Positions 1,594 to 46,154 are shown, numbered from the stretch's first letter. The stretch is DNA of 64,000 nucleotides from Candidatus Spongiisociaceae bacterium (GCA_965219685.1 CBDCOH010000002.1:3648001-3712000); one strand, 5' to 3'. Made by a program: numbers and translations. Notes: a model not told the origin generated them from the letters alone.

Positions 1594-1698
1594 CAATTCA
1601 CCATTCACCATTCACCATTCACCATTCACCATTCACCATTCACCATTCACCATTCACCATTCACCATTCACCATTCACCATTCACCATTCACCACTCA
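1594..1698 (-). repeat. Heptamer tandem array A1, (TGAATGG)n on the minus strand
   Basis: 13 perfect CCATTCA units plus 2 variant units; contains the stop codon of the PTE gene (1682-1684). Confidence 0.98.
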
Positions 1699-2752
1699 GT
1701 ATTCGCCGGGGGTTCTCCACGGTCATGTTGCGGATCTGGCGCTCGGTGACCCCGCGCTCGCGGAGCATCGGGATGGCGTGCTGTAGGACGAACGAGTAGC
1801 CGTCGCCGCCGTAGGACTTCCAGCGGATCTTGATGCCGACATCGTGGGACATCACCAACCGGCGGTCGTAGCCCTCCCGGCACAGGGTGGCGATGGCGTC
1901 GACCCGCTCGATGTCGGTCGGCATGGCGAAGCCCCCCATGAATGCCGACTCGCTGATCCCCTCGCAGCCGAACAGGTCGTACGAGAGGGTGATCCCCCGT
2001 GCCAGCAGGCGCCGGTGGTAGTCGAGGTCGTGCAACGTCATGTCGCAGTGGCTCAGGTAGAAGCGGTCGAGGTCGGCGCCCTCCTCCTCGATCAGGTCCA
2101 CGTACGACTCGCCGACCTTCGCCAGTCCTCCCGAGTCCGGGTCGTGGATCGAGGGGTGGAAGGTGAAGCCGACCCCGGTGCGGATCTGGGCCCGGCAGGC
2201 GGCCCGCAGCACCTTCTCCTCCTCCGGGTGGTGGGGGACGGGTTCGGTGCATGCGCACTCTCCGATCGCTCCGGCCCTGATGCCGGTGTCCTCGATTCCC
2301 TCCTCGAGTTCCCCGACCATGAGCCCGGCGATCTCGTCGACCGTCATGCCGGCCAGCCAGGGCGGATGCACCGTTTGCTTGTAGAACCCCGTGGTGGCGA
2401 TGATGTTGACGCCACTCTGGCGGGACACGCGGCGCAACCCCCGTACATCCCGACCCAGACCCCAGGTCGTGTTCTCGACGACTGTCGTCCCTCCCCACTG
2501 CCGGTAGTCGGCCAATGCCTCGGCGACCCGGTCCTCGTCGTCGAGCATCAGGTTGGTCCGGTTCGGGGCGCCCTTCCGCAAGGCGCCGAGTATCTCGATG
2601 GAGATGTCCGCGTCCCAGAGTTCGTGAGTGCTCGGATCACCATGTTGCTCGTACAGGGCGATCTGATTGCTGATCAGCACGTGCTCGTGTAGCAGCACCG
2701 TCCCGAGATCCCCTGGGGCGACCGGCCCCGTGACCGTCTGAACGGCGCTCAT
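1682..2752 (-). CDS. Phosphotriesterase/Php-family metallohydrolase 1
   Basis: VQTVTGPV, LLHEHV, TGFY, IGE, SHCD, SHD, NPRRIL. Alternative start at 2767. Ends SGEW inside the array. Confidence 0.9.
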   Translation of the reverse strand: MSAVQTVTGPVAPGDLGTVLLHEHVLISNQIALYEQHGDPSTHELWDADISIEILGALRKGAPNRTNLMLDDEDRVAEALADYRQWGGTTVVENTTWGLGRDVRGLRRVSRQSGVNIIATTGFYKQTVHPPWLAGMTVDEIAGLMVGELEEGIEDTGIRAGAIGECACTEPVPHHPEEEKVLRAACRAQIRTGVGFTFHPSIHDPDSGGLAKVGESYVDLIEEEGADLDRFYLSHCDMTLHDLDYHRRLLARGITLSYDLFGCEGISESAFMGGFAMPTDIERVDAIATLCREGYDRRLVMSHDVGIKIRWKSYGGDGYSFVLQHAIPMLRERGVTERQIRNMTVENPRRILSGEW

Positions 2753-2763
2753 CGCGGGCCCCG

Positions 2764-2875
2764 CCATTCACCACTCACTACTCACCATTCACCACTCACC
2801 ATTCACCATTCACCATTCACCACTCACTACTCACCATTCACCATTCACCATTCACCATTCACCATTCACCACTCG
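2764..2875 (-). repeat. Heptamer tandem array A2
   Basis: 16 units of CCATTCA/CCACTCA/CTACTCA filling nearly the whole intergenic gap. Confidence 0.98.
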
Positions 2876-3905
2876 GGATCGAGTATTGCCTGAGAACCGA
2901 CAGGATTCCCTGCCAGGTGGCCTCCACCAACTCGATCGGCCGGTCCCGGTTGGCGGCCCGGGCCTTCGCCTCGATCTCCCCCGGGTACATGATGGGCCTC
3001 GACTCGTCGCGCAGCCGGGTGCCTTTGAGGTGGTCGGTCATGATCGATGCCCGCCGCTTCGCCTCCTCGATGGGCACGAAGCGCTCCGGGTCGAGCACGA
3101 TGATCATGGAGTCGTTGCTGAAGGAGTCGGTCGGGTCTCCGGGTATGCCTCCCCCGGACAGGACCCCGCCGAAGAGGTCAACCATGAACGCCAGGGCGTA
3201 GCCCTTGTGGCCCTCCTCCCGGCCCAGCGGAAGGATGGCGCCGCCGCCGTAGAAGTCGTCGGGGTCGGTGGTGGGATTGCCGTCGGAGTCGATGATCCAC
3301 CCCGCCGGGGTCTGCTCGCCGCGGAACCTGTACATGCGTACCTTGCCCTCCGCCACCACCGAGGTCGCCATGTCCATCAGGAAAGGTCCTGCGTAGGCGG
3401 ACGGGAAGGACATGGCCACCGGGTTGGAGTTCAGTTTCCGCTCGGTGCCGCCGAACGGCGCCTGGTTGATGCCGTGTCCGCCCCCGCAGGTGAAGATGAT
3501 CGACGCCATGTCGCAGCCGGCCACCTTCTCGGCATAGCGGCCCAGGCGACCGATGTGCTTCACCCGGCGCATCGTCACCGAGCCGATTCCAGTGGTGCGG
3601 GCCTTCTCGATAGCCAGGTCGGTGGCGAACGTGGCGACTACCTGGCCGAACGCCCAGTTTCCGTCTACCCGCGCCGTCGAGGCGGATTCCGACACTATCC
3701 GGGGACCGGCGTCCGGGATCAACTCGCCCCGGTCGATGGCGTCGACGTACTCGCGCAGGCGCAGGACCCCGTGCGAGTGGTGCCCGATGGTGTCGTTGTC
3801 CACCAGGTGGTCGGCTACGACCCGGGCGGCGGCATCCGAGGCTCCCGCAGCCTGCAGCGCGGTGGCGCACATGTCCTCGAGATGTTCCCTCCGGATCCTC
3901 GGCAC
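2859..3905 (-). CDS. Type 2 malate/L-lactate dehydrogenase family oxidoreductase (Ldh_2)
   Basis: GHHSHGVLRL, HIGRLG, NPVA, DMATS, GHKGYAL, PGEIE. Ends SGEW inside the array. Confidence 0.92.
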   Translation of the reverse strand: MPRIRREHLEDMCATALQAAGASDAAARVVADHLVDNDTIGHHSHGVLRLREYVDAIDRGELIPDAGPRIVSESASTARVDGNWAFGQVVATFATDLAIEKARTTGIGSVTMRRVKHIGRLGRYAEKVAGCDMASIIFTCGGGHGINQAPFGGTERKLNSNPVAMSFPSAYAGPFLMDMATSVVAEGKVRMYRFRGEQTPAGWIIDSDGNPTTDPDDFYGGGAILPLGREEGHKGYALAFMVDLFGGVLSGGGIPGDPTDSFSNDSMIIVLDPERFVPIEEAKRRASIMTDHLKGTRLRDESRPIMYPGEIEAKARAANRDRPIELVEATWQGILSVLRQYSIPSGEW

Positions 3906-4017
3906 CGTCCGGCTCCCTTTCGATCGGATCGTCGGACGGGCTGTGCTCCGCCCTGATCAGCCCCAAGTACTGTACTGCCTTGCAGGTTCCGGAGAACGGG
4001 TGTCATGGAGGTGAAGG

Positions 4018-4746
4018 ATGCAGGAAGCGACACCGGTAACCGCTTCAACCCTCGATCTGCTTCGGCGGTTCGACACGCCCACCATCTGCAACGTGATCGA
4101 GCTGTTCGATGTCAGACCCCGCGACCAGGGCTACATGGACCACCGCGTCCGCTGTGCCTTTCCAGAGATGCCCCCGATGGTCGGTCTTGCCGCGACGGCG
4201 GCATTTCGATCGGCGGGCGAGCCGTCGGCGACCGACGTGTATGGCTCCTTCGAGGAGCAGATCGAACTGTTCGAAGCCCTCGACGGCCCGCCGGTGGTCG
4301 TCTACCAGGACCTCGACGATCCACCCGCCGCGGCGGTGTTCGGGGAGGTCATGTGCACTACGTACCGGACCTTCGGAGCTGTGGGCCTCGTGACTAACGG
4401 CGGCGGGCGGGACCTCGACCAGGTGAGGGCGCTCGACTTTCCGGTCTTCACGGGGTCCACCATCAGCGCGCACGGGTACTGCCGCAGCCTGCACGTCGGG
4501 CTGCAGGTCAGGGTGGGCGGCCTGGTTGTCAACACCGGCGACCTGCTTCACGGTGATCTGAACGGCGTCACCAGCATCCCCAGGAACATCGCCGCCGAGG
4601 TGGCGGAGGTGGCCGCCGACTTCGTGGCCGCCGAGGCGATCGTCCTGGACTACCTCAACGGTCCGGGTACCAAGACCCGGGCCGGGTTCTCCGATGCGTT
4701 CGCCGAGTTCCGGGCGGCGGTCGCCGACCTACGGGCGGCCATTTGA
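4018..4746 (+). CDS. RraA/HMG-aldolase family protein
   Basis: DTPTICN, FGEVM, GGGRDLD, GDLLHGDLNGV. Confidence 0.85.
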   Translation: MQEATPVTASTLDLLRRFDTPTICNVIELFDVRPRDQGYMDHRVRCAFPEMPPMVGLAATAAFRSAGEPSATDVYGSFEEQIELFEALDGPPVVVYQDLDDPPAAAVFGEVMCTTYRTFGAVGLVTNGGGRDLDQVRALDFPVFTGSTISAHGYCRSLHVGLQVRVGGLVVNTGDLLHGDLNGVTSIPRNIAAEVAEVAADFVAAEAIVLDYLNGPGTKTRAGFSDAFAEFRAAVADLRAAI

Positions 4747-4938
4747 CGACGCGTTTCGTCCCCCTGAGTGGTCTCGGGCACCGAAAACGGGGCTCTAGCT
4801 GGTGGGATTCCCCACAGTTTCGGGGATCGCTTAGAGTGCTGCCGGTGGGACGTACGGTGATTGACGTTCCCGAACTGTTGTTGCTGCCGTGACCGGTTTG
4901 CCGTTGAGACTGCCGGGAGAGAAGGCGAAGGAGTGAGC

Positions 4939-7900
4939 ATGACGAGTTGGCGGCCCAGGGGTCGATTGGCGTACTTCGCGGCGCTGGCGATGCTGGTGGG
5001 GATACTGGTCTCGGTCCCGGTGTCGGCCGGTGCCCAGGACGCGGAGGGGGACGACGGGTTCGTCCTCACGATCCTGCACAACAACGATGGCGAGTCGAAG
5101 CTCCTACCCGACGACGGTTCGGATCCGGGCGTGGCACGTTTCGTGGCGCTGATGAGACAGCTGCAGGCCACCGCGGCCGGCGAGGCGGTCGTGACGCTCA
5201 CCTCGGGTGACAACTTCCTGGCCTCCCAGGAGTTCGGAGTCTCGCTGGCGCGCGAGGGGCCCCTTTACGACTCGGTCGCCCTGAGCGGTGTCTACGACGC
5301 GATGGCGCTGGGCAACCATGACTTCGACATGGGCCCGGAGGTCACCGCCCGGTTCATCAGGGGCTTCGATCCGGCCATCCCGTTCCTGTCGGCCAACCTC
5401 GACTTCTCCGCCGAGCCGGAACTGCAGGCTCTGGTCGACCAGGGCCTCATCGCCGGTAGCACGGTGCTGGACAAGGGGCCGGTGCGGGTCGGTGTGATCG
5501 GTGCGGTCACGCCGATGCTGCCGAACATCTCGAGCCCCCGCAACGTGGCGGTCTCCCCGGTGCTGGCGGCTGTCCAAGCCGAAGTGGAGAGCCTCGAGGC
5601 CCAGGGGATCAACGTGATCGTCCTGGTCAGCCACCTTCAGGATGTCGCCGAGGAGATCGAGCTCGTGGCGAGCCTGTCCGGCGTGGACGTGGTGATCGCG
5701 GGCGGCGGCGACGACCTGTTGCGCAACGAGGGTGACACCTGCCTGCCCGACGAGGAGGCTGTGGCTCCCTACCCGATCATGGTGGAGGACGCCGCGGGGG
5801 CGATGGTTCCGGTGGTTACGGCACCGGGCGGGTACCGCTGCATCGGCATGCTCGATGTGAAGTTCGACGCGGCGGGGAACGTGGTGGCCGCCGATGGCAG
5901 CTCCGTCGGGGTCGGTTTCGAGGTGGAGCCCGATCCAGGCGTGCAGGCCAACGTGATCGAACCGCTGACCGCGGCCGTCGCCCGGATCAGTTCCGAAGTG
6001 ATCGGCACCAGCGAAGTCGAGTTGGACGCCCGCAAGCCGATGATCCGGACGGTGGCGACCAACGAGGGCAACCTGATGGCCGACGCGCTGCGGGCGGCCG
6101 CCGTCAACCTGGCGGAGAAGTTCGGCAGCCCCGTACCGGATGTCGCCATCCAGAACGGCGGGGGCATCCGCAACGACTCGGTGATACCCCCGGGTGAGAT
6201 CACGGTGGGGACCACGTGGGACATCGCCCCGTTCCGCAACTTCGTGGTGGTGGGCGAGGTGCCCCGTGACGTATTCCACGTCCTGCTGGAGCAGGCACTG
6301 GACCGCCTGCCGGGAGCCGGGGGCCAGTTCGCCCAGGTTTCGGGCTTCACCCTTACCTACGACCCGTCCGCTCCCGCCAGAGAGATCGCCCGGGACGGCG
6401 ACTGCTCCCTGGTCGGCAATCCCGGCGGGCGGGTGCAGGAAGTGGTGCTCGACGATGGCACCGTGATCGTCACCGGCGGCCAGGTCGTGCCCGGCGATCC
6501 GGTGGCGCTGGCCACCATCGACTTCCTCGTCGGCGGCGGGGACTGCTACCCGTTGACGGAAATCGAGTTCACCAAACTCGGTGTCAGCTATCAGCAGGCG
6601 CTGGCCAACTACATCTCCGAGGATCTGGGCGGGAAGATCACCGCCGAGGACTACCCGGTCGGCGGCGGGGGCAGGATCGTTGCCCTTGAGCCCGAACCGG
6701 AGCCCGAGCCCCAGCCGGAACCCGAACTCTTGCCGGAACCGGAACTGGAACCCATTTTCGAGACGGTGACGGTGAAGCCCGGCGACACGCTCCGCAAGAT
6801 CGCCATGGCGTACCTGGGCGACGAGACGCGCTGGCCCGAGATCTACGCACTGAATAGGGGCGTAGTCCAGGCCGATGGCAGGAAGCTGACCAACCCCAAC
6901 GTGATCCGCATCGGTTGGGTGCTCCGGATCGACGTGGGGCCGGAGCCGTTGCCGATCGATCCGGATGCGCGAGTCGGCACCCTCGACAACGGATTCACCT
7001 ACTACCTGCGTAGCAACGACCGGCCCGGCAACAGCATGACGATGCGGCTGGTTGTCAACGCAGGGTCGGCCAACGAACCCGCTCCGGGTCTCGGGATCGC
7101 CCACTACGTGGAGCACATGGTTCTGAGGGGTACGGAGGAGTATCCCGATGAGGTCTTCAGCGCGACGGTCCGGAACCTTGGCGCGGAGTTGGGTCCCGAC
7201 ACCAACGCGTACGTCTGGTACGACCAGACGGTCTACGAGTTGACGGTGGCAGCCGACGAGCCGGAGAAGGTCAGTACCGCCCTGCACATGCTATCGCAGC
7301 TGGCCCATGCGGCCACTCTCAGCCCGGAGGCTACGGAGAGCGAAAGGGGGGTGGTGATCGACGAACTGCGTTTCAGGACCGCCACCGGCAGTGGCCAGAT
7401 CTCCGCCGAGTTCGACCGTATCTACACGGAGGGCACACCTTACGAGGGCTACTACGCCATCGGCACTATTCCGGCAATCGAGGCGACGACCGCCGAGGAC
7501 CTGCGGGCGTTCTACGAGACGTGGTACGTACCTTCGAACCTGGCCATCGTGGCGGTGGGCGACATGCCAATCGACGAGTTGCAGGCCCTGGTGGAGGAGC
7601 ACTTCGGGCCGATTCCGCCCGGAGAGCCCCCGCCGTTCTCCCTGCCGGAGGTCGTTCCCGATCCCGAACCTTCGTACCACGTGGTCACCCATGAAGAGCA
7701 GGCATTCAACTTCATCTCTCTCGACATTCCCATCCCGGCCTCCTCTCCCGGTTCGTACGAGGGGCAGCGCCTGGCTCTGATGGAAAGGCTCATCCAGCTG
7801 ATGGTGCTGAACCGGCTCGAGGACGCCTACTACCGGGGCGAACTCACCCAGGTCGACCGCCCGTCCTTCATTACGTTCACCCACGGCAACGCGCTGCGGT

Positions 7901-9874: not shown

Positions 9875-10663
9875 ATGGGCGTCGAACGGTTCGAGCTTTC
9901 GGGACGGCGGGTGATCGTAACGGGCGGTTCGCGGGGCCTCGGCCTCGGGATGGGGATCGGCATGGCCCAGGCGGGCGCCGAGGTGTGGGCTCTGGACATT
10001 CTCGAGGAGCGCTTCGACACGGCCCGGGCGGAAGCGGGCGAGGCCGGGGTCGCAATCGAGTTCGTGGGTTGCGACGTTAGGAGCCCGGAACAGGTGGGGG
10101 AGGTGGCCGCCCGATGCGACGACGGCACGCCGTTGGTGCTGCTGAACAACGCCGGGATCGGAGAGCGTACCCCGATGGCGGATCTGCCCTACGAGGAGTG
10201 GTCGAAGGTCTTGGACGTCAACACCTACGGTGTGTTCGTATGCGCCCGGGCGTTCGGTGAGGTCATGCTGAGCCAGGGAGGCGGCTCGATCATCAACATC
10301 GCCTCCGTCTACGGCTTTCTCGGCCCGGATCCACGAATGTATACCTTCTACGACGGGGGCCCCTCGTCGGCTGCTTACGGCGCCAGCAAGGGAGGGGTGA
10401 TCGCGATCACCCGATCACTGGCGGCGGGATGGGCGGCGCGCGGGGTGCGGGTCAACTCCATCTCGCCGGGAATGTTCATCACCGACCAGACATCCGACAT
10501 CGTCGACGAGACCGGCAAGGCGACCATCCTCGGGAGGACCCCGATGGCCCGGTTCGGCCGTCCCGACGACCTGGTGGGCGCCGCCATCTTCCTCGCGTCG
10601 GACGCCTCCTCCTTCGTAACAGGACACAACCTGGTGGTCGACGGTGGATGGTCCATTTGGTAG
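9875..10663 (+). CDS. SDR family oxidoreductase
   Basis: TGGSRGLG, NNAG, YGASK, VDGG. Confidence 0.95.
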   Translation: MGVERFELSGRRVIVTGGSRGLGLGMGIGMAQAGAEVWALDILEERFDTARAEAGEAGVAIEFVGCDVRSPEQVGEVAARCDDGTPLVLLNNAGIGERTPMADLPYEEWSKVLDVNTYGVFVCARAFGEVMLSQGGGSIINIASVYGFLGPDPRMYTFYDGGPSSAAYGASKGGVIAITRSLAAGWAARGVRVNSISPGMFITDQTSDIVDETGKATILGRTPMARFGRPDDLVGAAIFLASDASSFVTGHNLVVDGGWSIW

Positions 10664-10702: not shown

Positions 10703-11200
10703 TCAGCGATCAACGCACGAGTAGATGATCTGTACCCTCGTTCCCGCTATCGCCCCGCCGCTCTTGGAGCTGAACGTCGGGGTTCCGTCATCCGCCCAGA
10801 CCGCCACGCCTCGACTCTCGACGTAGATGCTGAACCCGTCCCGAGCGGACAAACGAACGGCGTCGGCCAACCCGTATCCGCGCCATAGCTCTCCCGAAGA
10901 GGAGACCCCCGCAGTCAACGCTCGTTCGACAGCCTCGTGGTCCTTCAGATCGGGGAAGGCCCGTCTCATGGTCTCGGGAATACCGACACCATCATCCTGG
11001 ACGGTGATGATCACCTGCTGTCTGTCCCGTTCCGTGAAGACGTTGCCCGCTGCTTCCGCCCAGTGCAACACGTTGAGGCATAGCTCGGTAACGACCGATG
11101 TCAGAGCCGCCAGATCGTTCGGGGGGGCCGGTACCAACTCAGCAACCCGCCGGGCGGCTTCCGAAGGGGACCGCACAGGGAAGTTGTCCAAGGGGGTCAT
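10703..11200 (-). CDS. HATPase_c/anti-sigma-like ATP-binding protein
   Basis: GHKL boxes ELCLNV (N), DDGVGI (G1), RGYGL (G2), GTRV. Confidence 0.75.
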   Translation of the reverse strand: MTPLDNFPVRSPSEAARRVAELVPAPPNDLAALTSVVTELCLNVLHWAEAAGNVFTERDRQQVIITVQDDGVGIPETMRRAFPDLKDHEAVERALTAGVSSSGELWRGYGLADAVRLSARDGFSIYVESRGVAVWADDGTPTFSSKSGGAIAGTRVQIIYSCVDR

Positions 11201-11517
11201 GCGTTGAGTAGTTTGGGCCTCACCTTGCTCTTCGACGTGATCATGGCCAAGTCGATGAAGCGCCAGAGGCGATCCAGCGCCTCCGCTCGCGGTAGCGGTT
11301 CCGAGCTAGACGGATCCAGGGTGGCCCACTGCCAGTAGTTGACGGTGCAATTGGTGCCGATGGCTACGTAGAGCACCGGGTTCTCTCCGAGAGATTCGAG
11401 CATTATCCGGCACGGCAGATCCGGCCGGAGCATGGTCTCCAGAGAGGCGGGACCGACCCTGATCCAATCGAATCTCTCCGCCCTGATCTCGTCGAGCCAG
11501 TCAGTTCCTACCCGCAT
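11197..11517 (-). CDS. Hypothetical protein
   Basis: 106-aa ORF with ATGA overlap to the downstream HATPase gene. Confidence 0.55.
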   Translation of the reverse strand: MRVGTDWLDEIRAERFDWIRVGPASLETMLRPDLPCRIMLESLGENPVLYVAIGTNCTVNYWQWATLDPSSSEPLPRAEALDRLWRFIDLAMITSKSKVRPKLLNA

Positions 11518-11567
11518 GGATCACATGATATAGGGGTACCCAGCGCTGCAAGCGAAAGGCACTCGCG

Positions 11568-11614
11568 TTCGTAACCGGACACAACCTGGTGGTCGACGGC
11601 GGCTGGTCGATCTG
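11568..11614 (+). repeat. Direct repeat of the SDR 3' end (copy of 10613-10659)
   Basis: 42/47 identical; both copies encode FVTGHNLVVDGGWSI. Confidence 0.93.
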
Positions 11615-11620
11615 CCCAGG

Positions 11621-11669
11621 AGTGGTGGTTGGTGACTTGTGGCTGGTGGCTGGTGAATAGTGGTTAGTG
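11621..11669 (+). repeat. Degenerate heptamer array A7 (NNTNGTG x7)
   Basis: AGTGGTG GTTGGTG ACTTGTG GCTGGTG GCTGGTG AATAGTG GTTAGTG. Confidence 0.85.
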
Positions 11670-15677: not shown

Positions 15678-16655
15678 TCAAGTGCCAGCGAGGATACGCT
15701 TGGGGGTCTCGACCATGATGGTGTGCCACAGGTCGTCAGTGAGACCGATCTCCCGTTCCAGCAGGTCCCGCCCCATCACGGGGAGCCAGGCGTAGCCGCG
15801 GCCGCCGTTGGTGGCCAGATCTTCGGCGTAGCAGACATCGTGTGAGAGGACGATCTTGTCGACGTGGCCGTTGTCGATGAGGCGCTTGATGCTGCCTAGG
15901 ACCCGGCTGCGGTTGAAGCCGGTCATGTCCGGGAGGCTGCCCATGCGGTCGAACGACACGCAGGCGCCGCGGCGGGCGATCTCGGCATGGTACCGGGGAT
16001 AGGGCTGGCCTCCTGAGTGGGCCAGAACTACCCGGCTGAGGTCCACGCCTTCCTGCTCCAGGACGTCCAGTTGCTCCAATCCACCGATACCCCGCGTAGT
16101 GTGGGTGGTCAGGCCGACCCCGGTCTCGATCTGGGCGCGGCCCGCCGCCCGCAGCACCCGTTCCTCGATGGCGGAGAGGCGGTTGTACTGGGCGCCTATC
16201 TCCCCGATGATCCCCGCCTTCACATCGGTCCCTTCCATGCCTTCACGCAGCTCCGCGATGATCTCCTCCGCCAACTGGTCGGTGGACAAATCCCAAAGCC
16301 GAGGCTTGTAGTAGTTCTCGTGGTACCAGCCGGCGCCCATGACGATCTTCAGCCCGCTCCGCTCGGCGGATCGACGCACCGCCAGCGGGGGCGGCAGGGG
16401 CTCGAGGGTGTCCTGGTCGAACATGATCGGGTTGTCGAACTCTCGGAGCCCGCCGCTGGTGAGGTCTACGACGGTGGCGCCGCCGGCCTGGACGAGCATG
16501 TCCAGTTCGATATCGGCGAGTTCGGGGTCGTTGAGGATGTTGGTGAAGATCCAGGCGTCCCGCATCAGGTCGAGGAAGATGTGCTCGTGCATGAGGGTGA
16601 AGCCCAGTTGTTCCACGTCGACGGGACCGGTCACCGTCATCACCTGATCAGCCAT
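15678..16655 (-). CDS. Phosphotriesterase/Php-family metallohydrolase 2
   Basis: VMTVTGPV, MHEHI, GEIG, THT, AHS, SHD; strong RBS before ATG 16655. Confidence 0.92.
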   Translation of the reverse strand: MADQVMTVTGPVDVEQLGFTLMHEHIFLDLMRDAWIFTNILNDPELADIELDMLVQAGGATVVDLTSGGLREFDNPIMFDQDTLEPLPPPLAVRRSAERSGLKIVMGAGWYHENYYKPRLWDLSTDQLAEEIIAELREGMEGTDVKAGIIGEIGAQYNRLSAIEERVLRAAGRAQIETGVGLTTHTTRGIGGLEQLDVLEQEGVDLSRVVLAHSGGQPYPRYHAEIARRGACVSFDRMGSLPDMTGFNRSRVLGSIKRLIDNGHVDKIVLSHDVCYAEDLATNGGRGYAWLPVMGRDLLEREIGLTDDLWHTIMVETPKRILAGT

Positions 16656-16747
16656 CTCCACTCCTCCCGACCATCCAAGTATGGCTTGTGCCATCATGAT
16701 CGACAACGCCGTTCGGAGTGAGGCTACGGCGGCGGGGAGGAGGGGAA

Positions 16748-17707
16748 ATGACCGAGCGCACAGCCTTTTTCAATGGCCACTTCATCCCGGAGTCGGAGTT
16801 ACGGCTGGCGCCGTTCGACGTGGGGGTGCGGATCGGGGAGTTCGTGTTCGAGACCGTCCGAAGCTACGGGCTCCGCCCCCACCGCCTACGCGATCATATG
16901 GACCGCCTCTATGCATCGATGAAGGCCTTGGACATCGAGTGCGGCATGTCAGTCGAGGAGATGGAGGAGGTCACCCACGAGTTGATCGAGCGCAACAAGG
17001 CCACCATCGAGCCCTACGACGACCTGATGTGGAACAACGACTGCTCGCGGGGCATCGCCAAACCCTTCGATCCCGGTCCCTACGACTCGTACGAGAGGAC
17101 CGTGTTCATAGTGTTCATCCCGCTGGGACCGTCCCTGGTCGAAGCACTCGACGGGTTGGAGAACGGGGCACCGGTGGTGATCCCGCCCACCAAGAACATC
17201 CCGGCGAGGTACCTGGACCCGAAGATGAAGAACCGCAACCGTATCCACTACGGGCAGGGCATGAGGGAGGCCCGCAAGGTGGATCCCAGAGCCGAGGCCC
17301 TGTTCGTGGACGACGACGGCTACATCACCGAGGGCGGCGGGGCCAACTTCCTGATCGTGAAGGACGGCGCCATCATTTCGCCAGAGGGACGCAACATCCT
17401 GCGGGGGGTCACCCGGGAGGACGTGAGGGACCTTGCGCCGCAACTGGACATGGAGTTCGTGGAGACCAACATCGAGCCTTACGACGTGATGACCGCCGAC
17501 GAGGCCTTCTTCGCCTCCACGCCGTTCTTCGTGATGCCGGTGACCAGCATCGACGGCCGGACCATCGGGACCGGGAGGCCCGGTCCGGTCGTGCATCGCC
17601 TCATCGACGCCTTCGCCCAGCAGGTGGGCGTGCATCCGATCGAACAGGCTCGCAAGATCGCCCAGCCGTACCTGGCCGACCGCCCGAGGGGCTCCAGACC
17701 TTATTAG
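16748..17707 (+). CDS. Aminotransferase class IV (branched-chain/D-amino acid type)
   Basis: VFET.R, HMDRL, K in PKMKN, ITEGGGAN, ILRGVTR, ADEAF. Confidence 0.92.
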   Translation: MTERTAFFNGHFIPESELRLAPFDVGVRIGEFVFETVRSYGLRPHRLRDHMDRLYASMKALDIECGMSVEEMEEVTHELIERNKATIEPYDDLMWNNDCSRGIAKPFDPGPYDSYERTVFIVFIPLGPSLVEALDGLENGAPVVIPPTKNIPARYLDPKMKNRNRIHYGQGMREARKVDPRAEALFVDDDGYITEGGGANFLIVKDGAIISPEGRNILRGVTREDVRDLAPQLDMEFVETNIEPYDVMTADEAFFASTPFFVMPVTSIDGRTIGTGRPGPVVHRLIDAFAQQVGVHPIEQARKIAQPYLADRPRGSRPY

Positions 17708-17750
17708 TGGTGAGTGGTGAGTGGTGAGTGGTGAGTGGTGAGTGGTGAGT
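17705..17750 (+). repeat. Heptamer array A3, left part, (TGAGTGG)n
   Basis: Starts at the TAG stop of the aminotransferase; interrupted by the IS. Confidence 0.95.
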
Positions 17751-17802
17751 TGAACCGCCCCGGTTACCCCGGAGACTCGATTAGTTGGGAGATAATGGAG
17801 TC

Positions 17803-19043
<1,241 letters not shown>

Positions 19044-19073
19044 AACACTCTCCGGCAAACCCGGGGCGGTTCG

Positions 19074-19139
19074 AGTGGTGAGTGGTGAGTGGTGAATGGT
19101 GAATGGTGAGTGGTGAATGGTGAATGGTGAATGGTGAAT
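19074..19139 (+). repeat. Heptamer array A3, right part
   Basis: TGAGTGG/TGAATGG units in phase with the left part once the IS and its TSD are removed. Confidence 0.95.
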
Positions 19140-19196
19140 CTGGATCAACCTGTAAGGGTACTCGGCGGCTTACATCCAACGGGCAACGGGCAACTA
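19139..19196. repeat. Dispersed core motif plus AACGGGC heptamers (copy 1)
   Basis: TCTGGATCAACCTGTAAGGGTACTCGGCGG is 26/30 identical to 55507-55536; followed by AACGGGC AACGGGC AACTAG. Confidence 0.85.
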
Positions 19197-20015
19197 GTAC
19201 AGGGCGGCTTTGATCTGCGCGACGAGGTTTGGGTCCAACTGATGGAAGGTGCTGGCAAGCGCCCACGGACCGTTTATGGAGGCCACGCCCCCGTCGATCG
19301 GGATGACAGCGCCGGTCACGAAGCGGGAACGGGGCGAGCAGAGCCAGGCGACCAGTTCGGCCACCTCGTCGGGGTTACCGATCCTGCGTCCGGGTAGCAC
19401 GGTGTCGTAGAAGCTCAGGTCTGCCGCGCCCAGCATCGGCGTGTCGATCGCGCCGGGAGCGATCACGTTGACGGTGATCTCGTGTTGGGCGAGTTCGGAG
19501 GCCAACGGACGGGCCATGCCCTCCAGGGCCGCCTTGCTGCCCGTGTAGGGGATGTCACCGGCTTGCCCGCGGGCGGCGGCGATCGACGACCACATGATGA
19601 TCCGCCCACCGTCGCCCTGCCCGATCATCTGGCGGGCGGCGTTCTTGACGCAGTAGAGCGTGCCGAAGGTGTTGATGCGGAAGATCCGCTCCACGTCGTC
19701 GTAGTCCATGTCGACGATGCTGTTCCAGCCCGCCCATACGGCGGCCGCGGTGGCCAGGATGTACGCCGGTCCCAGAGAGCTGCCGATCTCGTCGAAGGCC
19801 TCCGCGACCAGGTCCGGGTCCGAGGTGTCGACCGCCAGCGTGAGCATGTCGTCTTCGAGCGTGGCGAGACCGTCGGTGTTCAGGTCGAGGGCCGCCACCG
19901 TCGCTCCTGCTCGATGCAGCCGGAGCGCAGTGGCCCTGCCCTGACCTGAAGCCGCCCCGGTCACCACGGCAACACGCCCGCTGAGATCGAGTACGTCCAT
20001 GTCGGATCCGCCCAT
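19194..20015 (-). CDS. SDR family oxidoreductase
   Basis: TGAASGQG, YTGSK, APGAIDT, IDGG; RBS GGAGGA. Confidence 0.93.
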   Translation of the reverse strand: MGGSDMDVLDLSGRVAVVTGAASGQGRATALRLHRAGATVAALDLNTDGLATLEDDMLTLAVDTSDPDLVAEAFDEIGSSLGPAYILATAAAVWAGWNSIVDMDYDDVERIFRINTFGTLYCVKNAARQMIGQGDGGRIIMWSSIAAARGQAGDIPYTGSKAALEGMARPLASELAQHEITVNVIAPGAIDTPMLGAADLSFYDTVLPGRRIGNPDEVAELVAWLCSPRSRFVTGAVIPIDGGVASINGPWALASTFHQLDPNLVAQIKAALY

Positions 20016-20445
20016 AGGGTCCTCCTGTCGCAACTGGGAAGAGGGTACCCATTATGCGATCAGCGTCCTTCGGGAGGAGCCGTTGTCGCCGGGGTCCAGG
20101 AATCGTTCGCAGCAGACTCCGACGCTCCGGAAATCCTGGAGGCGGAAGGGCGCCTACCCTCCCGACACCGCGAAAAGCGCCCGACGGACCTCTGCCGAGG
20201 GCCCTCCCCCAGCCACCACCTCCGTTGGCTCCGGGCGCGTTCCTCTACTCCTGATGAGGGTCGGCCTGGGCGATCTGATCCCTGCCACGGTCCGTCCGGC
20301 GCCGGGAGACGGACCGTCGGTGTTTACGGCTGCATATCAGTATGCGACATACCTGCGACATGTCAACCCCCCTCTCTGCGGTGTCGACGAGGCACGGCCA
20401 ATCGGTTGACACCTAGGGGTGGGAGTGCTTGGATAACTTGGAAAA

Positions 20446-35348: not shown

Positions 35349-35837
35349 ATGCGGATCTTTGAGGCTCGGGATCGCCGCTTCGGCGGATACGTAGAGGATT
35401 ACGAGGTGGGCGATCTGTACCGGCACTGGCCGGGGAAGACCATCACGGACGCCGAGAACCATCTCTTCTGCCTGCTGACCATGGCGACCAGCCACCTGCA
35501 CATTGACGGGCACCACATGAAGACCTCCGACAGTGTCTTCGACCGCCCGGTGGTGGTGGGCTCGTATGTCTACTCGCTCCTGCTGGGGATGAGTGTCCCC
35601 GATATGTCGGGCCGGGCGCTGGCCAACCTCGGTACGACGGACCTTCGCCATGAGGCCCCGGTGTATCCCGGTGACACCCTGTACGGGGAGTCGAGCGTGA
35701 CGGAGGCGCGGCTGAGCAACTCGCGTCCGGACGCAGGTGTGCTCACCTTCGAGACGAGGGGTCGCAATCAGGACGGGGCGGTCGTGGCCAGGTACACCCG
35801 CTCGGTGCTCCTGCCCAGGCGCGACGACCATGGCTGA
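35349..35837 (+). CDS. MaoC-family dehydratase
   Basis: EDYEVG..Y.HWPGKTIT, LTM...LH.D, SVPD.SG, PVYPGDTL. Confidence 0.9.
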   Translation: MRIFEARDRRFGGYVEDYEVGDLYRHWPGKTITDAENHLFCLLTMATSHLHIDGHHMKTSDSVFDRPVVVGSYVYSLLLGMSVPDMSGRALANLGTTDLRHEAPVYPGDTLYGESSVTEARLSNSRPDAGVLTFETRGRNQDGAVVARYTRSVLLPRRDDHG

Positions 35838-36987
35838 ACAGGGACCCCTGTCCGATGTGCGGGTGATCGACATGGCGACGATCATCGCCGGACCCGGAGC
35901 CGCTCGACACCTCGCCGACTTCGGAGCCGACGTGATCAAGGTTGAGGCGCCGGGAGGCGACGCGACACGCAGGTTGGGTTGGACCGAACCCGGCGGCGAT
36001 GACTCCTACTTCTGGAAGATGGCGGGCCGCGGCAAGCGCAGCATCGTTCTCGATCTCAAACATCCCAAGGGTCATGAAGCCATGCTGCGTCTCGTCGACA
36101 CCGCCGACGTGCTGGTGGAGAACATGAGACCCGGGAAGCTCGAGGGACTGGGCCTGGCTCCGGACCTGCTCCACGAGCGCAATCGCCGTCTCGTGATCCT
36201 GAGAGTCACGGGGTTCGGCCAGAGCGGCCCCTACGCGTCCAGGCCCGCGTTTGCCACGCTGATCGAAGCGATGAGCGGTCTGTCCGCCATTAGCGGACTG
36301 GCCGACGGGCAGCCACTGCTTCCTCCGATACCCCTCACCGACGAGGTCACCGGGATACTCGGTGCCTTCTCGGTCATGGTCGCGCTCCGGCACGCCGAGA
36401 ACACCGGCGAGGGACAGGTCATCGACCTCAGCCTCCTGGAGTCGACCCTCCAACTCATGGGGCCCCTACCTTCCGCATACGCCCACCTCGGCTACCTGCA
36501 ACCCAAAATGGGAGCAGGCCTTCCCTGGACCGTGCCAAGAGGTACGTATCAGTGCTCCGATGGTGCTTGGGTTGCCCTTTCATGCTCGAATGACGCGGTT
36601 GCGGAGCGCGTGCTCAAACTCATTGGCGCCGCCGGGGATCCGCGCTTCGCCACCTTCCAAGCCCGCTTCAACAACCGTGACGATCTCGAAGCCCTCATCG
36701 TCGACTGGATCGCGGTTCGCACGAGCGACGAGGTGATGGGACGTTTCAGGGAAGTCGATGCAGCAATCGCACCGGTGTGCACCATGGCCGAAGTCTTCGC
36801 CGATGAACAGGTCCAGCACCGGAACGCAATCATCGAGGTAGACGGCGTTCAGATGCAGGGAATCGCACCCAGGTTGTCTTCGTCCCCTGGAGAGGTACGT
36901 TTCGCAGGCAGATCCCTGGGCGCCGACACGGCGAAAGTCCTCTCGGAGCTCGGCGTCGAAGTACCACCAGAAGTGAGTGGTGAGTAG
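35830..36987 (+). CDS. CoA-transferase family III (CaiB/BaiF)
   Basis: GPLSDVRVID, LADFGADVIKVE, RGKRS, ENMRPG, GFGQSGPY. Ends SGE inside the array. Confidence 0.95.
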   Translation: MAEQGPLSDVRVIDMATIIAGPGAARHLADFGADVIKVEAPGGDATRRLGWTEPGGDDSYFWKMAGRGKRSIVLDLKHPKGHEAMLRLVDTADVLVENMRPGKLEGLGLAPDLLHERNRRLVILRVTGFGQSGPYASRPAFATLIEAMSGLSAISGLADGQPLLPPIPLTDEVTGILGAFSVMVALRHAENTGEGQVIDLSLLESTLQLMGPLPSAYAHLGYLQPKMGAGLPWTVPRGTYQCSDGAWVALSCSNDAVAERVLKLIGAAGDPRFATFQARFNNRDDLEALIVDWIAVRTSDEVMGRFREVDAAIAPVCTMAEVFADEQVQHRNAIIEVDGVQMQGIAPRLSSSPGEVRFAGRSLGADTAKVLSELGVEVPPEVSGE

Positions 36988-37040
36988 TGAGTGGTGAATG
37001 GTGAGTAGTGAATGGTGAATGGTGAATGGTGAATGGTGAG
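36974..37040 (+). repeat. Heptamer array A4
   Basis: About 9.5 units of TGAGTGG/TGAGTAG/TGAATGG; contains the TAG stop at 36985-36987. Confidence 0.97.
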
Positions 37041-37052: not shown

Positions 37053-37140
37053 CACGAGCCACCAGCCACCAGCCAGGCCAGAGGCCCTCGGATCCTGATG
37101 CGATGCCCGGTCGCCCCACAAGCCACAAGCCACAAGCCAC
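37053..37140 (-). repeat. Inverted heptamer runs (GCTGGTG / GCTTGTG on the minus strand)
   Basis: CACGAGC CACCAGC CACCAGC, and CACAAGC x3. Confidence 0.8.
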
Positions 37141-39480: not shown

Positions 39481-39546
39481 TCCGATCGTCTGTTGGCTCA
39501 TACGTAGATGCGGCGCCGATGACGCGGTGGCCAATACGGAGTCCGG

Positions 39547-42424: not shown

Positions 42425-43806
42425 GCCTGGACCGGGCCTACGAGTCGGCGATCGGGGATGACCGCTCCCATGTGATCCACCCATTCAGCCAGCTCGCCAC
42501 CACCGAGATCACCGCCGACGACATGTACGTGGGAGGGGAGGGCTGCTTCCTGCAGGACGCCCGAGGCAACCGGCTGTTCGACGCCAACGCCGGGCTCTGG
42601 TGCGTGAACATCGGTTACGGGCGGACCGAGATGGTGGAGGCCATCGCCGAGCAGACCGCCCGGATGAGCTACGGCCAGATCTTCGCCGGGAACGCCAACC
42701 TGCCGTCGGCCGAGCTGGCGGGCCGGATCGCATATCTGGCCCCCGACGGTCTCAACAAGGTGTTCTTCAGCACCGGAGGTTCGATCGCCAACGAGACGGC
42801 GGTGCGCACAGCCCACCACTACTTCCGGCTGCAAGGCAGGGACAGCAAGCGGTTTGTGCTGAGCGTCGACCAGTCGTACCACGGGTCCACGTACCTGGCG
42901 GCCTCGCTCACCTTCTCGGGGAACTACCACGAGACGTTCCACGTGGTGGACGTGGTCCGCAAGGTCGCCTCCCCCTACCAGTACCGCGCGCCGGGGGGCC
43001 TGGGCGGCGAGGACTTCGTCGACTACCTGGTGGACGACCTGGAACGGACCATCACCCGGTTGGGCGCCGACAACATCGCGTGCTTCATCCTGGAGCCGGT
43101 GCTGGGCGCCGGAGGGGTGATCGTGCCGCCCGACGGTTACCACGCCCGGATGGTGGAGGTGTGCCGGGCCAACGACATCTTCGTGATCGCCGACGAGGTG
43201 GTGACCGGGTTCGGCCGCCTGGGCCACTTCATGGCCGCCGAGACGGTGTTCGGGATGGAAGCCGACATGATCACCCTGGGCAAGGGGATCAGCTCGGCCT
43301 ACCAACCCCTGGCAGCCACGCTCGTGTCGGACCGTATCCACGATGTCATCAGCTCGTCCAAGGACCCCGACCAGATCTACGCCCACGGGTTCACCCACTC
43401 CGGCCACCCTGTGTGTTGCGCGGCCGGCCTCGCCAACCTCGACATCATGGAACGGGAGGACATCTGCGGACATGTGACCCGGGCGGGGTCCGGATTCCAG
43501 GCCCGGCTACGGGATCTCCATGACTCGGCACTGGTGGGCGAGGTCCGAGGCATGGGTTTCATGGCGGCAGTGGAACTCGTCCAGGACCGCGACACCAAGG
43601 CGGTCTTCCCTCCGGAGGTCGGGATATCCGGCCGGGTAGAGGCCCACTGCCGGAGCCAGGGCCTGATCGTGCGACCCCTGCGCCAGCACATCATCCTGTC
43701 GCCGCCCCTGGTCATGACGGCCGAGCAGGGTGAGTGGGTGGTCGGGGTAATCCGCGGGAGTCTCGAACGGGTGGAGTCCGACCTCCGGGCCGAAGGGATA
43801 CGCTGA
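42421..43806 (+). CDS. Aminotransferase class III (omega-amine/BioA-like)
   Basis: GLWCVNIGYG, YHGST, EPVLGAGG, DEVVTGFGR, GKG, HGFTHSGHP. Confidence 0.94.
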   Translation: MSLDRAYESAIGDDRSHVIHPFSQLATTEITADDMYVGGEGCFLQDARGNRLFDANAGLWCVNIGYGRTEMVEAIAEQTARMSYGQIFAGNANLPSAELAGRIAYLAPDGLNKVFFSTGGSIANETAVRTAHHYFRLQGRDSKRFVLSVDQSYHGSTYLAASLTFSGNYHETFHVVDVVRKVASPYQYRAPGGLGGEDFVDYLVDDLERTITRLGADNIACFILEPVLGAGGVIVPPDGYHARMVEVCRANDIFVIADEVVTGFGRLGHFMAAETVFGMEADMITLGKGISSAYQPLAATLVSDRIHDVISSSKDPDQIYAHGFTHSGHPVCCAAGLANLDIMEREDICGHVTRAGSGFQARLRDLHDSALVGEVRGMGFMAAVELVQDRDTKAVFPPEVGISGRVEAHCRSQGLIVRPLRQHIILSPPLVMTAEQGEWVVGVIRGSLERVESDLRAEGIR

Positions 43807-43842
43807 CCGGACACGAGTCGCGGACCGGGAGGTCGTACGTCG

Positions 43843-44952
43843 ATGTCTAGCGTCCCCATCCTGGCAGCCGTCTCCCGCGATACGGGTTCCGACCTGGAAC
43901 TCGAAGAACTCCGCCTGGAGGAACCCGGACCGGGGGAGGTGCGGGTCCGGATCGCCGCCGCGGCCATCTGCGCGAGCGACACTGCATACATAGACGGCGC
44001 GTGGGACGCACCGAGGCCGGCGGTGTTCGGACATGAAGCGGCTGGCGTGATCGACGCCGTCGGCGCCGGCGTGGAGGATGCCGACCCCGGTGATCGGGTG
44101 GTTGTGACCCTGGTGCGCAGTTGCGGGTCGTGCCGCCATTGCCTCCGGGGGGAACCGGTCGCATGCCGGGGCGAGTTCGGACTGGACGAGCGACACCCGA
44201 CACGCGACCGGACGGGTAGGCCGGTGCACCGGGGTCTCCGGGTCGCCGCCTTCGCGTCGGCCGTGCTCGTTCACCGCTCCCAGGTCGTGAAGGTGGGCGC
44301 CGGGATCCGCCTCGATGCCGCCGCGCTGCTGTCGTGCGGGGTGCTGACCGGTGTCGGATCCGTGTTCAACACGGCGGACGTCCAGTCAGGCTCGCACGTC
44401 GTCGTGCTCGGCTGCGGCGGTGTGGGACTCAACGTCTTGCAGGGGGCCCGCATCGCGGGCGCGGCCACGGTTACGGCGGTCGACCCGGATCCCCGCAAGC
44501 TGGCCGCCGCGCGACGGTTCGGCGCTAGCGGCGCGGTCGGCTCCGGTGACGATGTCGATGCCGCCGTCTCGGAAGTCACCGGCGGAGAGATGGCCGACTA
44601 CGTGTTCGTGGCCACCTCCTCGGTGACGGCCATCGAGACAGGCTTCGGTCTGCTGGCCCGGATGGGAGCCCTCGTGATCGTGGGCATGCCCCCGACCGGA
44701 GCCACCGCAACGCTCGATGCCGGCTCGGTGGCGGCCTCCAACCAGCGGGTTCTCGGTTCGAAGATGGGTACCACCCGGCCGGCCGAGGACATTCCCAGGC
44801 TGGCCGACCTGTACGCGGAAGGCCGGTTGGAGCTTGACGGCTTGATAACCGGGCGTTACCGGTTCGAAGACATCAACGAGGCGCTGGAGTCGTCCCGCCG
44901 GGGCGACGCGCTGCGAAACTTGGTGATCATGGCGGACGAGCTGATTCCATGA
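43843..44952 (+). CDS. Zinc-dependent alcohol dehydrogenase
   Basis: C.SD, GHEAAG, C..C..C.......C, CGVLTG, GCGGVG. Confidence 0.94.
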   Translation: MSSVPILAAVSRDTGSDLELEELRLEEPGPGEVRVRIAAAAICASDTAYIDGAWDAPRPAVFGHEAAGVIDAVGAGVEDADPGDRVVVTLVRSCGSCRHCLRGEPVACRGEFGLDERHPTRDRTGRPVHRGLRVAAFASAVLVHRSQVVKVGAGIRLDAAALLSCGVLTGVGSVFNTADVQSGSHVVVLGCGGVGLNVLQGARIAGAATVTAVDPDPRKLAAARRFGASGAVGSGDDVDAAVSEVTGGEMADYVFVATSSVTAIETGFGLLARMGALVIVGMPPTGATATLDAGSVAASNQRVLGSKMGTTRPAEDIPRLADLYAEGRLELDGLITGRYRFEDINEALESSRRGDALRNLVIMADELIP

Positions 44953-46154
44953 AGATCTCCGGGTTCGAGACCTTCGTGGTGGCCAACCCGCCTCCGGGCT
45001 TCGGCGGCCGCTACTTCATATTCGTGAAGCTCACCACCGACGACGGGATCGTCGGCTACGGCGAGCACTACGGGGCCACGTTCCGGCCGCTGGTCGTTGA
45101 GGCGATGCTGCGAGACGTTGCCGGGGCGCTCCTGATCGGAGAGGACCCCTTCCGGATAGAGCGCTTCTTCCGCCGCGCCTACGGGCGAGGCTTCACGGCC
45201 CGGCCCGACGTGTCGATGGCCGGAGTGGTCAGCGCCCTCGAGATGGCCTGCTGGGACATCATCGGCAAGGCCCTGGACAGGCCTGTCCACGCGCTGTTGG
45301 GCGGCCGGGTCCGGGACGCGGTCCGCTCCTACACCTATCTCTATCCAGAACTCGGCGAAGAAGGCGACGTGTACGCCGATCCTGAACTGGCGGCCAGCCG
45401 AGCTGCCGAGTACGCCGCTCGAGGGTTCACCGCTGTCAAGTTCGACCCGGCCGGTCCCTACTCGTCGATGGGTGGCTACCAGCCGCTCCTGGAACGGATC
45501 GATCTGTCCGTGCGGTTCTGCCGAGCGATCAGGGAGGCCGTCGGGACCGGCGCCGACATCCTGTTCGGAACGCACGGGCAGTTCACGCCCGCCGGCGCCA
45601 TCCGCCTCGCCAAGGCCCTCGAGCCCTTCGACCCGCTGTGGTTCGAGGAGCCTGTCCCGCCCGACGACATCCCGGGGATGGCCCGTGTCCGCAGCCGCAC
45701 GTCCATCCCGATCGCGGCCGGCGAGCGCTTGGTCAACAAAGTCGAGTTCGCCCAGGTCATCGCGGCGGAGGCGATCGACATCGCGCAGCCCGACCTGGGA
45801 CGGTGCGGGGGCTTGCTCGAGGGCAAGAAGATAGCCTCGATAGCCGAGGCTCACGGCGTGCAGATCGCTCCGCACTGTTACAGCGGTCCCATCGTCGGCG
45901 CCGCCAACCTGCAGTTGGCCGCATGCACGCCCAACCTCCTGGTTCTCGAGGCGATCAAGGACTGGGGCGGGTTCCACGCCGAACTGCTGAAGGCCCCTCT
46001 TCGGCTGGAGGGCGGGCACACCATCGTTCCGTCTGCGCCGGGTCTGGGAGTGGAACTAGACGAGGAAGTCGCCCGTGCACACGCCTTCGACGGCGAGGGC
46101 CTGCATATCGAGATGGTGGACGAACCGGTCGACTACGGGAGTGGTGAGTGGTGA
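44949..46154 (+). CDS. Mandelate racemase family acid-sugar dehydratase-like enzyme
   Basis: WDIIGK, KFD, THGQF, WFEEP, GER, QPD, APH, PGLGVE. Ends SGEW inside the array. Confidence 0.92.
   Translation: MKISGFETFVVANPPPGFGGRYFIFVKLTTDDGIVGYGEHYGATFRPLVVEAMLRDVAGALLIGEDPFRIERFFRRAYGRGFTARPDVSMAGVVSALEMACWDIIGKALDRPVHALLGGRVRDAVRSYTYLYPELGEEGDVYADPELAASRAAEYAARGFTAVKFDPAGPYSSMGGYQPLLERIDLSVRFCRAIREAVGTGADILFGTHGQFTPAGAIRLAKALEPFDPLWFEEPVPPDDIPGMARVRSRTSIPIAAGERLVNKVEFAQVIAAEAIDIAQPDLGRCGGLLEGKKIASIAEAHGVQIAPHCYSGPIVGAANLQLAACTPNLLVLEAIKDWGGFHAELLKAPLRLEGGHTIVPSAPGLGVELDEEVARAHAFDGEGLHIEMVDEPVDYGSGEW

Follow-up and report, generated by a model that had tools for sequence, protein, structure and literature searches.

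Why do four unrelated enzymes encoded in one stretch of a bacterial chromosome end in the same few residues? The stretch, hereafter the window, is a 64-kb interval (G000:C2:3648001-3712000) from a sponge-associated actinobacterium (Candidatus Spongiisociaceae bacterium), whose assembly, G000, comprises 4.39 Mb and a 30-kb contig with a G+C content of 65%. The genes for a PTE-family enzyme, an Ldh_2 dehydrogenase, a family III CoA-transferase, and an enolase-superfamily enzyme each run at their 3′ ends into a tandem array of a 7-bp unit, (GGTGART)n, and the proteins end in SGEW or SGE. A preliminary description of this DNA read the arrays as a universal all-frame terminator and the shared tail either as a C-terminal tag or as a simple by-product. 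Here, we report that the observation is broader than four tails, with arrays that are polar and anchored on gene stops genome-wide, and that the tails are most probably a by-product of these arrays rather than a protein tag.

C-termini written by heptamer arrays

We called 3478 genes with our own crude codon-usage caller and used the stop positions alone, which are independent of start choice. Tandem Repeats Finder (TRF) and pattern matching placed eight (GGTGART)n arrays at seven loci of the window, where GGTGAATGGTGA, with at most one mismatch, matched 53 times compared with 0.29 expected from 100 shuffles. Open reading frames (ORFs), Pfam matches, and junction translations confirmed that four enzymes take their stop and an SGE(W) end from such an array. 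The PTE gene (1682..2767, minus strand; PF02126, E 2e-64, with the profile matched to 297/298 at residue 357) ends ...NPRRILSGEW, and its last 4 codons (SGEW) and its TGA are supplied by a (GGTGAAT)n array of 14.7 copies anchored in the gene end (1596..1698, minus strand; TRF, pattern matches). The Ldh_2 gene, of the malate/L-lactate dehydrogenase family (2859..3905, minus strand; PF02615, E 3.6e-101), ends ...YSIPSGEW in a (GGTGART)n array of 15.4 copies (2764..2871, minus strand; TRF, sequence) that occupies the entire spacer from the Ldh_2 stop to the PTE start; in the related genomes G007 and G002 this spacer is 27 and 74 nt long, respectively, and carries no array. The family III CoA-transferase gene (CoA_transf_3; 35737..36987, plus strand; PF02515, E 1.4e-110) ends ...PPEVSGE at a TAG from a variant AGTGAGT unit, within a (GGTGART / AGTGART)n array of 9.6 copies (36973..37039, plus strand; TRF). 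Finally, the enolase-superfamily gene (MR_MLE; 44949..46154, plus strand; PF13378/PF02746) ends ...VDYGSGEW in a short (GGTGAGT)4 array that decays to GGTGGTT/CGTGGCT/GGTGGCC units (46139..46182, plus strand; TRF, sequence).

All four junctions lie within the arrays, and the tails are the arrays' own reading frames. Read in three frames, an array gives W, SGEW or NGEW, and VVSGEW or MVNGEW, each followed by a stop. As the preliminary description had stated, every frame is closed within 21 nt, because the unit has one TGA and 7 is coprime to 3, so that each frame meets one TGA per 21 nt.

The same description had proposed that an array could enter a gene end without leaving the frame open. Alignment with orthologous C-termini from the same genus or family (about 62-91% identity) bore this out: short variable native tails had been lost in all four genes, and none of the orthologs examined had the SGE(W) tail, so the new tails are not conserved. 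PTE orthologs, with 88-91% identity in G001, G002, and G007 and 62-65% at eight further loci, end ...NPRRIL followed by VSD, AG, AGV, or TP... tails and never by SGEW. Ldh_2 orthologs end ...S[LI]PEP plus variable tails; the G007 protein ends SIPSGRWHVVG, a decayed array translated to the next stop. The CoA-transferase orthologs end EATGN in G007, with degenerate heptamers behind, and KATGGR in G001, where TAG is followed by (GGTGTCA)n. Array-free enolase orthologs end VDYRDPRWAG(R/SQG/LQEP) or ...TGRG, and the G007 enolase ends VDYRDPRW, with TAG and then (GGTGGCT)n. The enolase thus presents three steps: an array-free gene with a long tail (G002, G001, G005, G020), an array directly behind the tryptophan codon (G007), and an array five codons further in (G000). 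The replacement cost PTE 2-4 native residues and the CoA-transferase ∼4; Ldh_2 lost everything variable behind S[LI]P, and the enolase lost RDPRWAG....

At its other end, the PTE gene also meets an array. The last unit of the array at 2764..2871 gives an in-frame ATG five codons upstream of the start used by orthologs (window 2752-2767), and automatic annotation is therefore likely to over-extend the PTE N-terminus. The true start is probably the ATG at 2752 and not the array-borne ATG at 2767, because orthologs begin MxEVQTVTGPV. The PTE family itself is much expanded, with 25 matches in G000 and 22-31 in G001, G002, and G007, and the window contains or adjoins at least three of the copies (1682-2767, 15678-16706, and one ending at window base 1).

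Endings of this type are not confined to the four enzymes. A proteome-wide count, which the preliminary description had proposed, found them enriched: GEW is the commonest C-terminal tripeptide, ending 20 of the 3478 called proteins compared with 0.3 expected from composition. SGEW, the commonest C-terminal tetrapeptide, ends 10 proteins and SGE ends 5, and tryptophan is the last residue of 96 proteins compared with 52 expected. We then followed how deeply arrays reach into genes, using the 92 genes with a (GGTGART) array of at least three units no more than 80 nt from the stop. The stop is an in-phase array TGA in 45 of them, the array abuts the gene's own stop (-3 to +2 nt) in 32, and the gap is larger in 15. 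Among the 45 in-phase genes, 17 have 3-5 nt of coding sequence (CDS) that match the array, with the stop counted, and the other 28 have 6-23 nt, which gives 28 genes with at least one array-coded codon before the stop in the GGTGART family alone. Of the 45, 23 end at the first TGA of the array, 15 at the second, and 7 at the third, compared with an even 15/15/15 expectation. Tail length is accordingly 0-6 residues and skewed short, and the tails run from W to VVSGEW, with NGEW, LGEW, and PGEW among them, as set by frame and border.

Could SGEW or GEW be a tag with a function at the C-terminus, picked up by unrelated enzymes as a degron, a sorting signal, or an interaction motif? The excess of GEW ends over composition would fit such a tag, as would the enolase, which retains a terminal tryptophan. 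However, no ortholog of the four genes carries the tail, its sequence depends only on frame and border, and most arrays begin at the stop and add nothing to the protein. Longer tails are also rarer than an even spread would give, and this under-representation of deep fusions is evidence against a selected tag. We therefore regard a tag as very improbable, and this part of the preliminary description did not survive the comparison. The alternative it had offered, a simple by-product, agrees with the tail-free orthologs, the short variable tails that were replaced, and the short-skewed tail lengths.

We infer the following route. The gene-side border of an array would move into the gene, with slippage, unequal exchange among arrays, and deletion where there is microhomology to ...GGTGA as candidate causes, and the ORF would close after no more than six array-coded residues (W, EW, GEW, SGEW/NGEW, or VVSGEW). 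Such fusions would survive only where the lost native tail is dispensable, and the new tails would themselves have no function. For annotation, several dozen proteins have C-termini written by repeats, which changes in array length can shift, and GEW-type tails should therefore not be read as motifs.

Polarity and anchoring on stop codons

TRF returned 650 period-7 rows among 3049 for the G000 genome. Our own detector found 303 period-7 arrays genome-wide, 16,177 nt in all (median 40 nt, maximum 384 nt), 202 of which belong to the GGTGART family. Merging neighbors left 286 arrays, 267 intergenic and 19 inside called genes. Their G/T-rich, C-free strand lies in mRNA sense. Of the 181 gene 3′ ends with an array in the sense orientation, 135 are separated from it by no more than 3 nt (92 overlap), compared with 4 of 153 antisense ends. 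Replication-strand bias was ruled out as the source of this polarity: 144 arrays have the G-rich strand on the leading side and 142 on the lagging side, and the polarity therefore follows genes, not replication. For sense arrays, the median distance to the next start is 109 nt, and they are not forward repeats just upstream of starts; antisense arrays are also found 8-50 nt before start codons.

Anchoring extends beyond GGTGART. Several families consist of a stop plus four bases, namely (TAGTTGC)n, (TAGTTGG)n, (TAGTCGG)n, (TAGGTGT)n, (TGATTGG)n, and (TGACTGG)n, and the gene's stop is their opening triplet. Anchoring also holds for units that lack a stop in every frame, at 9 of 19 sense ends compared with 1 of 22 antisense ends, and it therefore does not follow from the stops in the array itself. 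Stop-less units (e.g., CAGTTGC, CGGTTGC, TGGATGG) come after a first unit that still has a real TAG or TGA. The order of units within arrays is polar as well: among 128 arrays of at least five units, GAGT units precede GAAT units in 33 and follow them in 5, the first, gene-proximal unit is GAGT in 79, and the last, distal unit is GAAT in 90.

We next compared the window with the syntenic regions G007:C32 and G002:C1. Heptamers stand at or near the stop in G007 at seven of seven array-bearing ends with an ortholog there, or eight of eight if the relic end of an SDR gene (described below) is counted, five of them clear and three degenerate; of the 26 window ends without an array, 0-1 has such repeats in G007. 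Six ends could be compared with G002, where clear heptamers stand at three, degenerate ones at a fourth, and no repeats at the remaining two. At orthologous ends, the relatives carry stop-less units (TGGCTTG, TCGGTTG, GGTGGCT) behind the gene's own TAG. Position is thus conserved while the unit is replaced, and the presence of each genome's own dominant unit at several orthologous loci suggests exchange between arrays. Three successive GGTGRNT units matched 1060 times in G000 (mostly GGTGART), 168 times in G007 (GGTGGCT, GGTGGAT, GGTGATT, GGTGACT), 4 times in G002, twice in G019, 5 times in G331, and in none of the other 24 family genomes; genus g7 has other heptamer units. Many contigs of the draft genome G007 start or stop within heptamer arrays (C6, C16, C37, C40, C45, and others), so that arrays apparently break short-read assemblies and are under-counted in draft genomes. 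No claim made here depends on the unpublished genomes G028 and G039.

Three observations weigh against a by-product of stop-anchored arrays as a full account. First, 162 of the 181 sense-anchored arrays (∼90%) have stops in all three frames, a predominance that, among arrays that are not independent events, could reflect selection for stopping. Second, the own stops that arrays abut are TAG in 29 of 32 cases compared with 31% genome-wide (p 2e-12). Classification accounts for part of this excess, since in-phase TGA stops were assigned to the array, and what lies beyond that effect we cannot fully explain; at the other heptamer families, the stops are 31 TAG, 18 TGA, and 1 TAA. Third, the enolase keeps its terminal tryptophan (RDPRW to GSGEW), which may be coincidence.

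The first two observations lead to the reading of the arrays as fail-safe translation stops, selected to catch read-through or frameshifted ribosomes in any frame, with the tails as the price. The all-frame stops support it, as do the arrays that begin exactly at the stop, and an excess of TAG would be expected if a second stop backs a weak one. However, stop-less units are anchored as well, the relatives have stop-less units behind the same TAG, and the arrays far exceed three units. The same arrays also occur in antisense shortly before starts and as inverted arms at S23p genes (see below), and transfer-messenger RNA (tmRNA), like Rho, is encoded in G000 anyway. We consider selection for fail-safe stopping quite unlikely. 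The all-frame terminator of the preliminary description therefore stands as a property of the sequence, with stops in all frames, and is not supported as a primary role, given stop-less units that are anchored and arrays of up to 384 nt.

Related repeats and possible roles of the arrays

A by-product of stop-anchored arrays leaves the arrays themselves to be placed among known repeats. Both the all-frame-stop argument for 7-nt units and heptamer repeats close to stops are already published (PMC4679880, PMC4692102), and our comparisons with these and the other papers cited extend to the sections consulted. Rehm et al. (2015; PMC4692102) described G-rich heptamers, GGGAATC in Xanthomonas and GGGGAYT in Nostoc PCC 7120, with hundreds of copies that are mostly intergenic. 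Their G-rich strand is on the coding strand 0-50 bp from the stop, with some copies overlapping it; copies on the non-coding strand lie close before starts, inverted pairs lie between convergent ORFs, and the repeats are under-represented between divergent ORFs. The present arrays share with this class the 7-nt tandem unit, the many copies and intergenic location (267/286), and the G-rich coding-strand arrays at stops (135/181 sense versus 4/153 antisense ends). They differ in having units with GG only rather than quadruplex-forming tracts of three or four Gs, in broad lengths with no preference for four units, and in a unit that carries a stop codon, so that, unlike the Rehm repeats, they rewrite C-termini. 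The arrays thus join the class of stop-proximal heptamer repeats but lack the G-quadruplex potential that marks it. No quadruplex was predicted for GG units, and adding G-quadruplex terms in ViennaRNA left the minimum free energy unchanged.

MacGregor (2015; PMC4679880) described TAACTGA direct repeats in marine Beggiatoaceae that have stops in all three forward frames and overlap ORF ends by up to 18 nt, with 13 ORFs listed as having their stop in the repeats. The likeness lies in the all-frame stops and in the array-matching CDS tails, 3-23 nt here including the stop. However, the TAACTGA repeats are mostly just upstream of starts in sets of 2-5, whereas the present arrays follow stops and reach 55 units, and the unit sequence differs. 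A literature string search found no publication with GGTGAATGGTGAAT, GGTGAGTGGTGAGT, or their complements.

Short tandemly repeated repetitive (STRR) heptamers of cyanobacteria reportedly form a similar period-7 class. They are cited for Calothrix in PMC4692102, and heptanucleotides are over-represented among long prokaryotic simple-sequence repeats (Mrazek et al., 2007, via PMC4679880 and PMC4692102). As in those surveys, whose genomes include large GC-rich ones, the long tandem repeats here are dominated by period 7 (650/3049 TRF rows). The consulted portions of the surveys do not describe stop anchoring or array-coded tails.

Runs of four GGTGART units were present in none of 300 other genomes sampled from the class Acidimicrobiia, one of which was from the same family. 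At least 120 stretches with such a run, counted with one genome per species, came from Mesorhizobium, Gemmatimonadales, Chitinophagales, Planctomycetota, Chloroflexia, and others. At 49 of 78 loci in these other phyla, a frame that stays open through all 200 nt of the flank closes at the array or inside it, although an open-frame control did not separate the strands, with the upstream flank open in sense at 40/57 and in antisense at 44/57. C-termini such as ...GGEW were seen in these phyla as well. Pfam was matched at E ≤ 0.01 by 13 of the 58 sense fragments, 8 of them below 1e-6, and the alignments mostly reach or approach the C-terminus of the family model (MraW 230-307/309, tRNA-synt_2 257-307/308), with TAL_FSA (191-239/285) and a weak STAS_2 match (1-34/80) as exceptions. 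The present case adds to this widespread, unexplained repeat class an example from a genome labelled Acidimicrobiia with unusually clean numbers. The anchoring of stop-less units, the conserved position with unit turnover, and the polar order of variants offer handles on what the arrays do.

One possibility is that the arrays are RNA or DNA modules of gene 3′ ends and that the tails are incidental; the antisense strand, which is rich in C, free of G, and unstructured, as a site for Rho loading (rut) would be, could stop transcription entering from the 3′ side. Folding with ViennaRNA is compatible with such a module: predicted energies are 0 kcal/mol for antisense arrays and between -0.04 and -0.13 kcal/mol per nt for sense arrays, and the first 60 nt behind a stop average -7.1 kcal/mol where an array is present (n=77) compared with -18.1 where none is (n=510). 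Rho is encoded, the position of arrays is conserved while the unit changes (7/7, or 8/8 with the relic SDR end, versus 0-1/26 in G007), and arrays occupy 87 of 578 convergent, 118 of 2285 co-directional, and 27 of 578 divergent spacers. However, the enrichment in convergent spacers is about what the number of 3′ ends predicts, and there is no reason why a rut site should touch the stop codon. Rut sites are typically ∼60-80 nt long, and many arrays, with a median of 40 nt, fall below this. Moreover, the sections consulted in PMC4692102 report no function, regulatory or other, for the Rehm repeats. On balance, we think a 3′-end module unlikely.

Other RNA-based candidates were rejected. For the four arrays with their downstream flanks, a hairpin or terminator was not apparent, as the fold z-scores against shuffles were -1.83 (CoA-transferase), +0.23 (PTE), +0.47 (enolase), and -0.15 (Ldh_2). 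Two C-rich heptamer arrays, (CACCAGC)3 and (CCACAAG)3.6 (37053..37140, plus strand; TRF), lie between the G-rich array of the CoA-transferase and the next gene (37225) and pair only weakly with that array (z -1.8). GGUGA is complementary to UCACC in the 3′ end of 16S rRNA (...GGATCACCTCCTTTCT), but pairing with the anti-Shine-Dalgarno sequence was set aside as an explanation, as other unit families (TAGTTGC, TAGTCGG) lack that complementarity.

Inverted heptamer arrays flank both G000 genes for S23p (PF05635, "23S rRNA intervening sequence protein"), of which one is intact and the other frameshifted; both lie outside the window (G000:C2:1041196-1041513 and 3558603-3558894). At each, a G-rich array abuts the stop of the upstream gene and an inverted C-rich array follows downstream. 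S23p hairpin elements are known, for example, as the IVS (intervening sequence) in Coxiella burnetii (PMC4990558); the likeness lies in a PF05635 gene bracketed by inverted arms at two of two G000 loci, although the elements here are between protein genes and not in 23S rRNA. The intact gene sits between a gene ending ...AAQAG and a secG-like gene, and S23p occupies the corresponding position in G002, G007, G020, and G021. Of 10 S23p loci in relatives, 4 are flanked by a strict period-7 run, and degenerate inverted arms were seen by eye at five more. The four arrays that write the enzyme tails are accompanied neither by an S23p gene nor by a partner arm that pairs strongly (z -1.8 to +0.5).

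These loci, together with the conserved position with replaced units and the polar GAGT-to-GAAT order, point to a further reading in which a polar, genome-wide homogenizing process, by exchange or templated addition and possibly tied to the hairpin elements of S23p (Avd-like), would keep arrays in position as strand-asymmetric 3′-end modules. Arrays that are C-free and unstructured in mRNA and G-free and rut-like in antisense RNA would then not be passive products of slippage. We hold this reading to be improbable as matters stand. Templated synthesis by a reverse transcriptase was considered and rejected: the sole RVT_1 gene (C2:102982-103497) adjoins an ISL3 transposase fragment, and nothing links it to S23p or the arrays.

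Other arrays in the genome and the window

More than 20 arrays in G000 are followed by a conserved core of ∼75 nt and then by a second array (G000:C2, e.g., 886750-886844 and 3613485-3613579; L029-L048). The core has the consensus TAACTCTTGACGGTACTCGACTACCGAGCTAGGACC..GGCCACGATGAGCCAGGTGTGGTAGCCGTTCAC, always with (GGTGAAT)n before and (GGCAACN)n after. Five copies gave no Rfam match at E ≤ 1, and the consensus fold (-5.9 kcal/mol) had no covariation support, with a compensatory change in one of nine pairs. About half of the copies contain a promoter-like TTGACG-17-TAGGAC.

Within the window, TAG stops abut arrays at 17705-17707, 36985-36987, 55424-55426, and 19194-19196. The first belongs to a class IV aminotransferase gene (16718..17707, plus strand; PF01063, E 3.2e-40), whose own TAG is directly followed by an array. 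This TAG is common to G000, G007, and G002 and is followed by (TGGTGAG)n, (TGGCTTG)2, and (TCGGTTG)3, respectively. The G000 array has been split by an IS3-family insertion sequence (IS) element with orfA (HTH_Tnp_1) and orfB (rve) (17751..19075, plus strand; Pfam, sequence), which lies within (GGTGAGT)n, has inverted ends TGAACCGCCCCGG... and an AGT duplication, and has no ortholog in the syntenic regions of G007 or G002. The left half of the array is at 17706..17750 and the right half, (GGTGART)n, at 19076..19139 (both plus strand; TRF, sequence). Beyond it, a (TTGCCCG)n array (19177..19196, minus strand; TRF, sequence) begins at the TAG of a convergent SDR gene (19194..20033, minus strand).

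The gene for an S15-family X-Pro dipeptidyl-peptidase (53669..55426, plus strand; Pfam, junction sequence) likewise has its own TAG abutting an array, (GGTGAGT)8(GGTGAAT)2 (55426..55505, plus strand; TRF, sequence), in the usual order with GAGT first and GAAT last. Its ortholog in G007 has the same TAG followed by other heptamers. Degenerate heptamers (GGTTGCT AGTCGGT AGTTGCC CGTTCCC CGTTGCC; 55547..55587, minus strand) begin 3 nt beyond the TGA that ends the convergent gene for a P-type ATPase (55588..58218, minus strand).

The relic SDR gene end counted above (…GHNLVVDGGWSI…; 11560..11663, plus strand; TRF, sequence, G007/G002 comparison) carries a degenerate array. The intact SDR gene (9875..10663) ends GGWSIW at a TAG without an array, ∼900 nt of inserted genes away from the relic. 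The interval holds two inserted genes, 10703-11200 (HATPase_c-like) and 11197-11517, which have no ortholog in G007 or G002. In both of these genomes, an array lies directly behind the SDR TAG.

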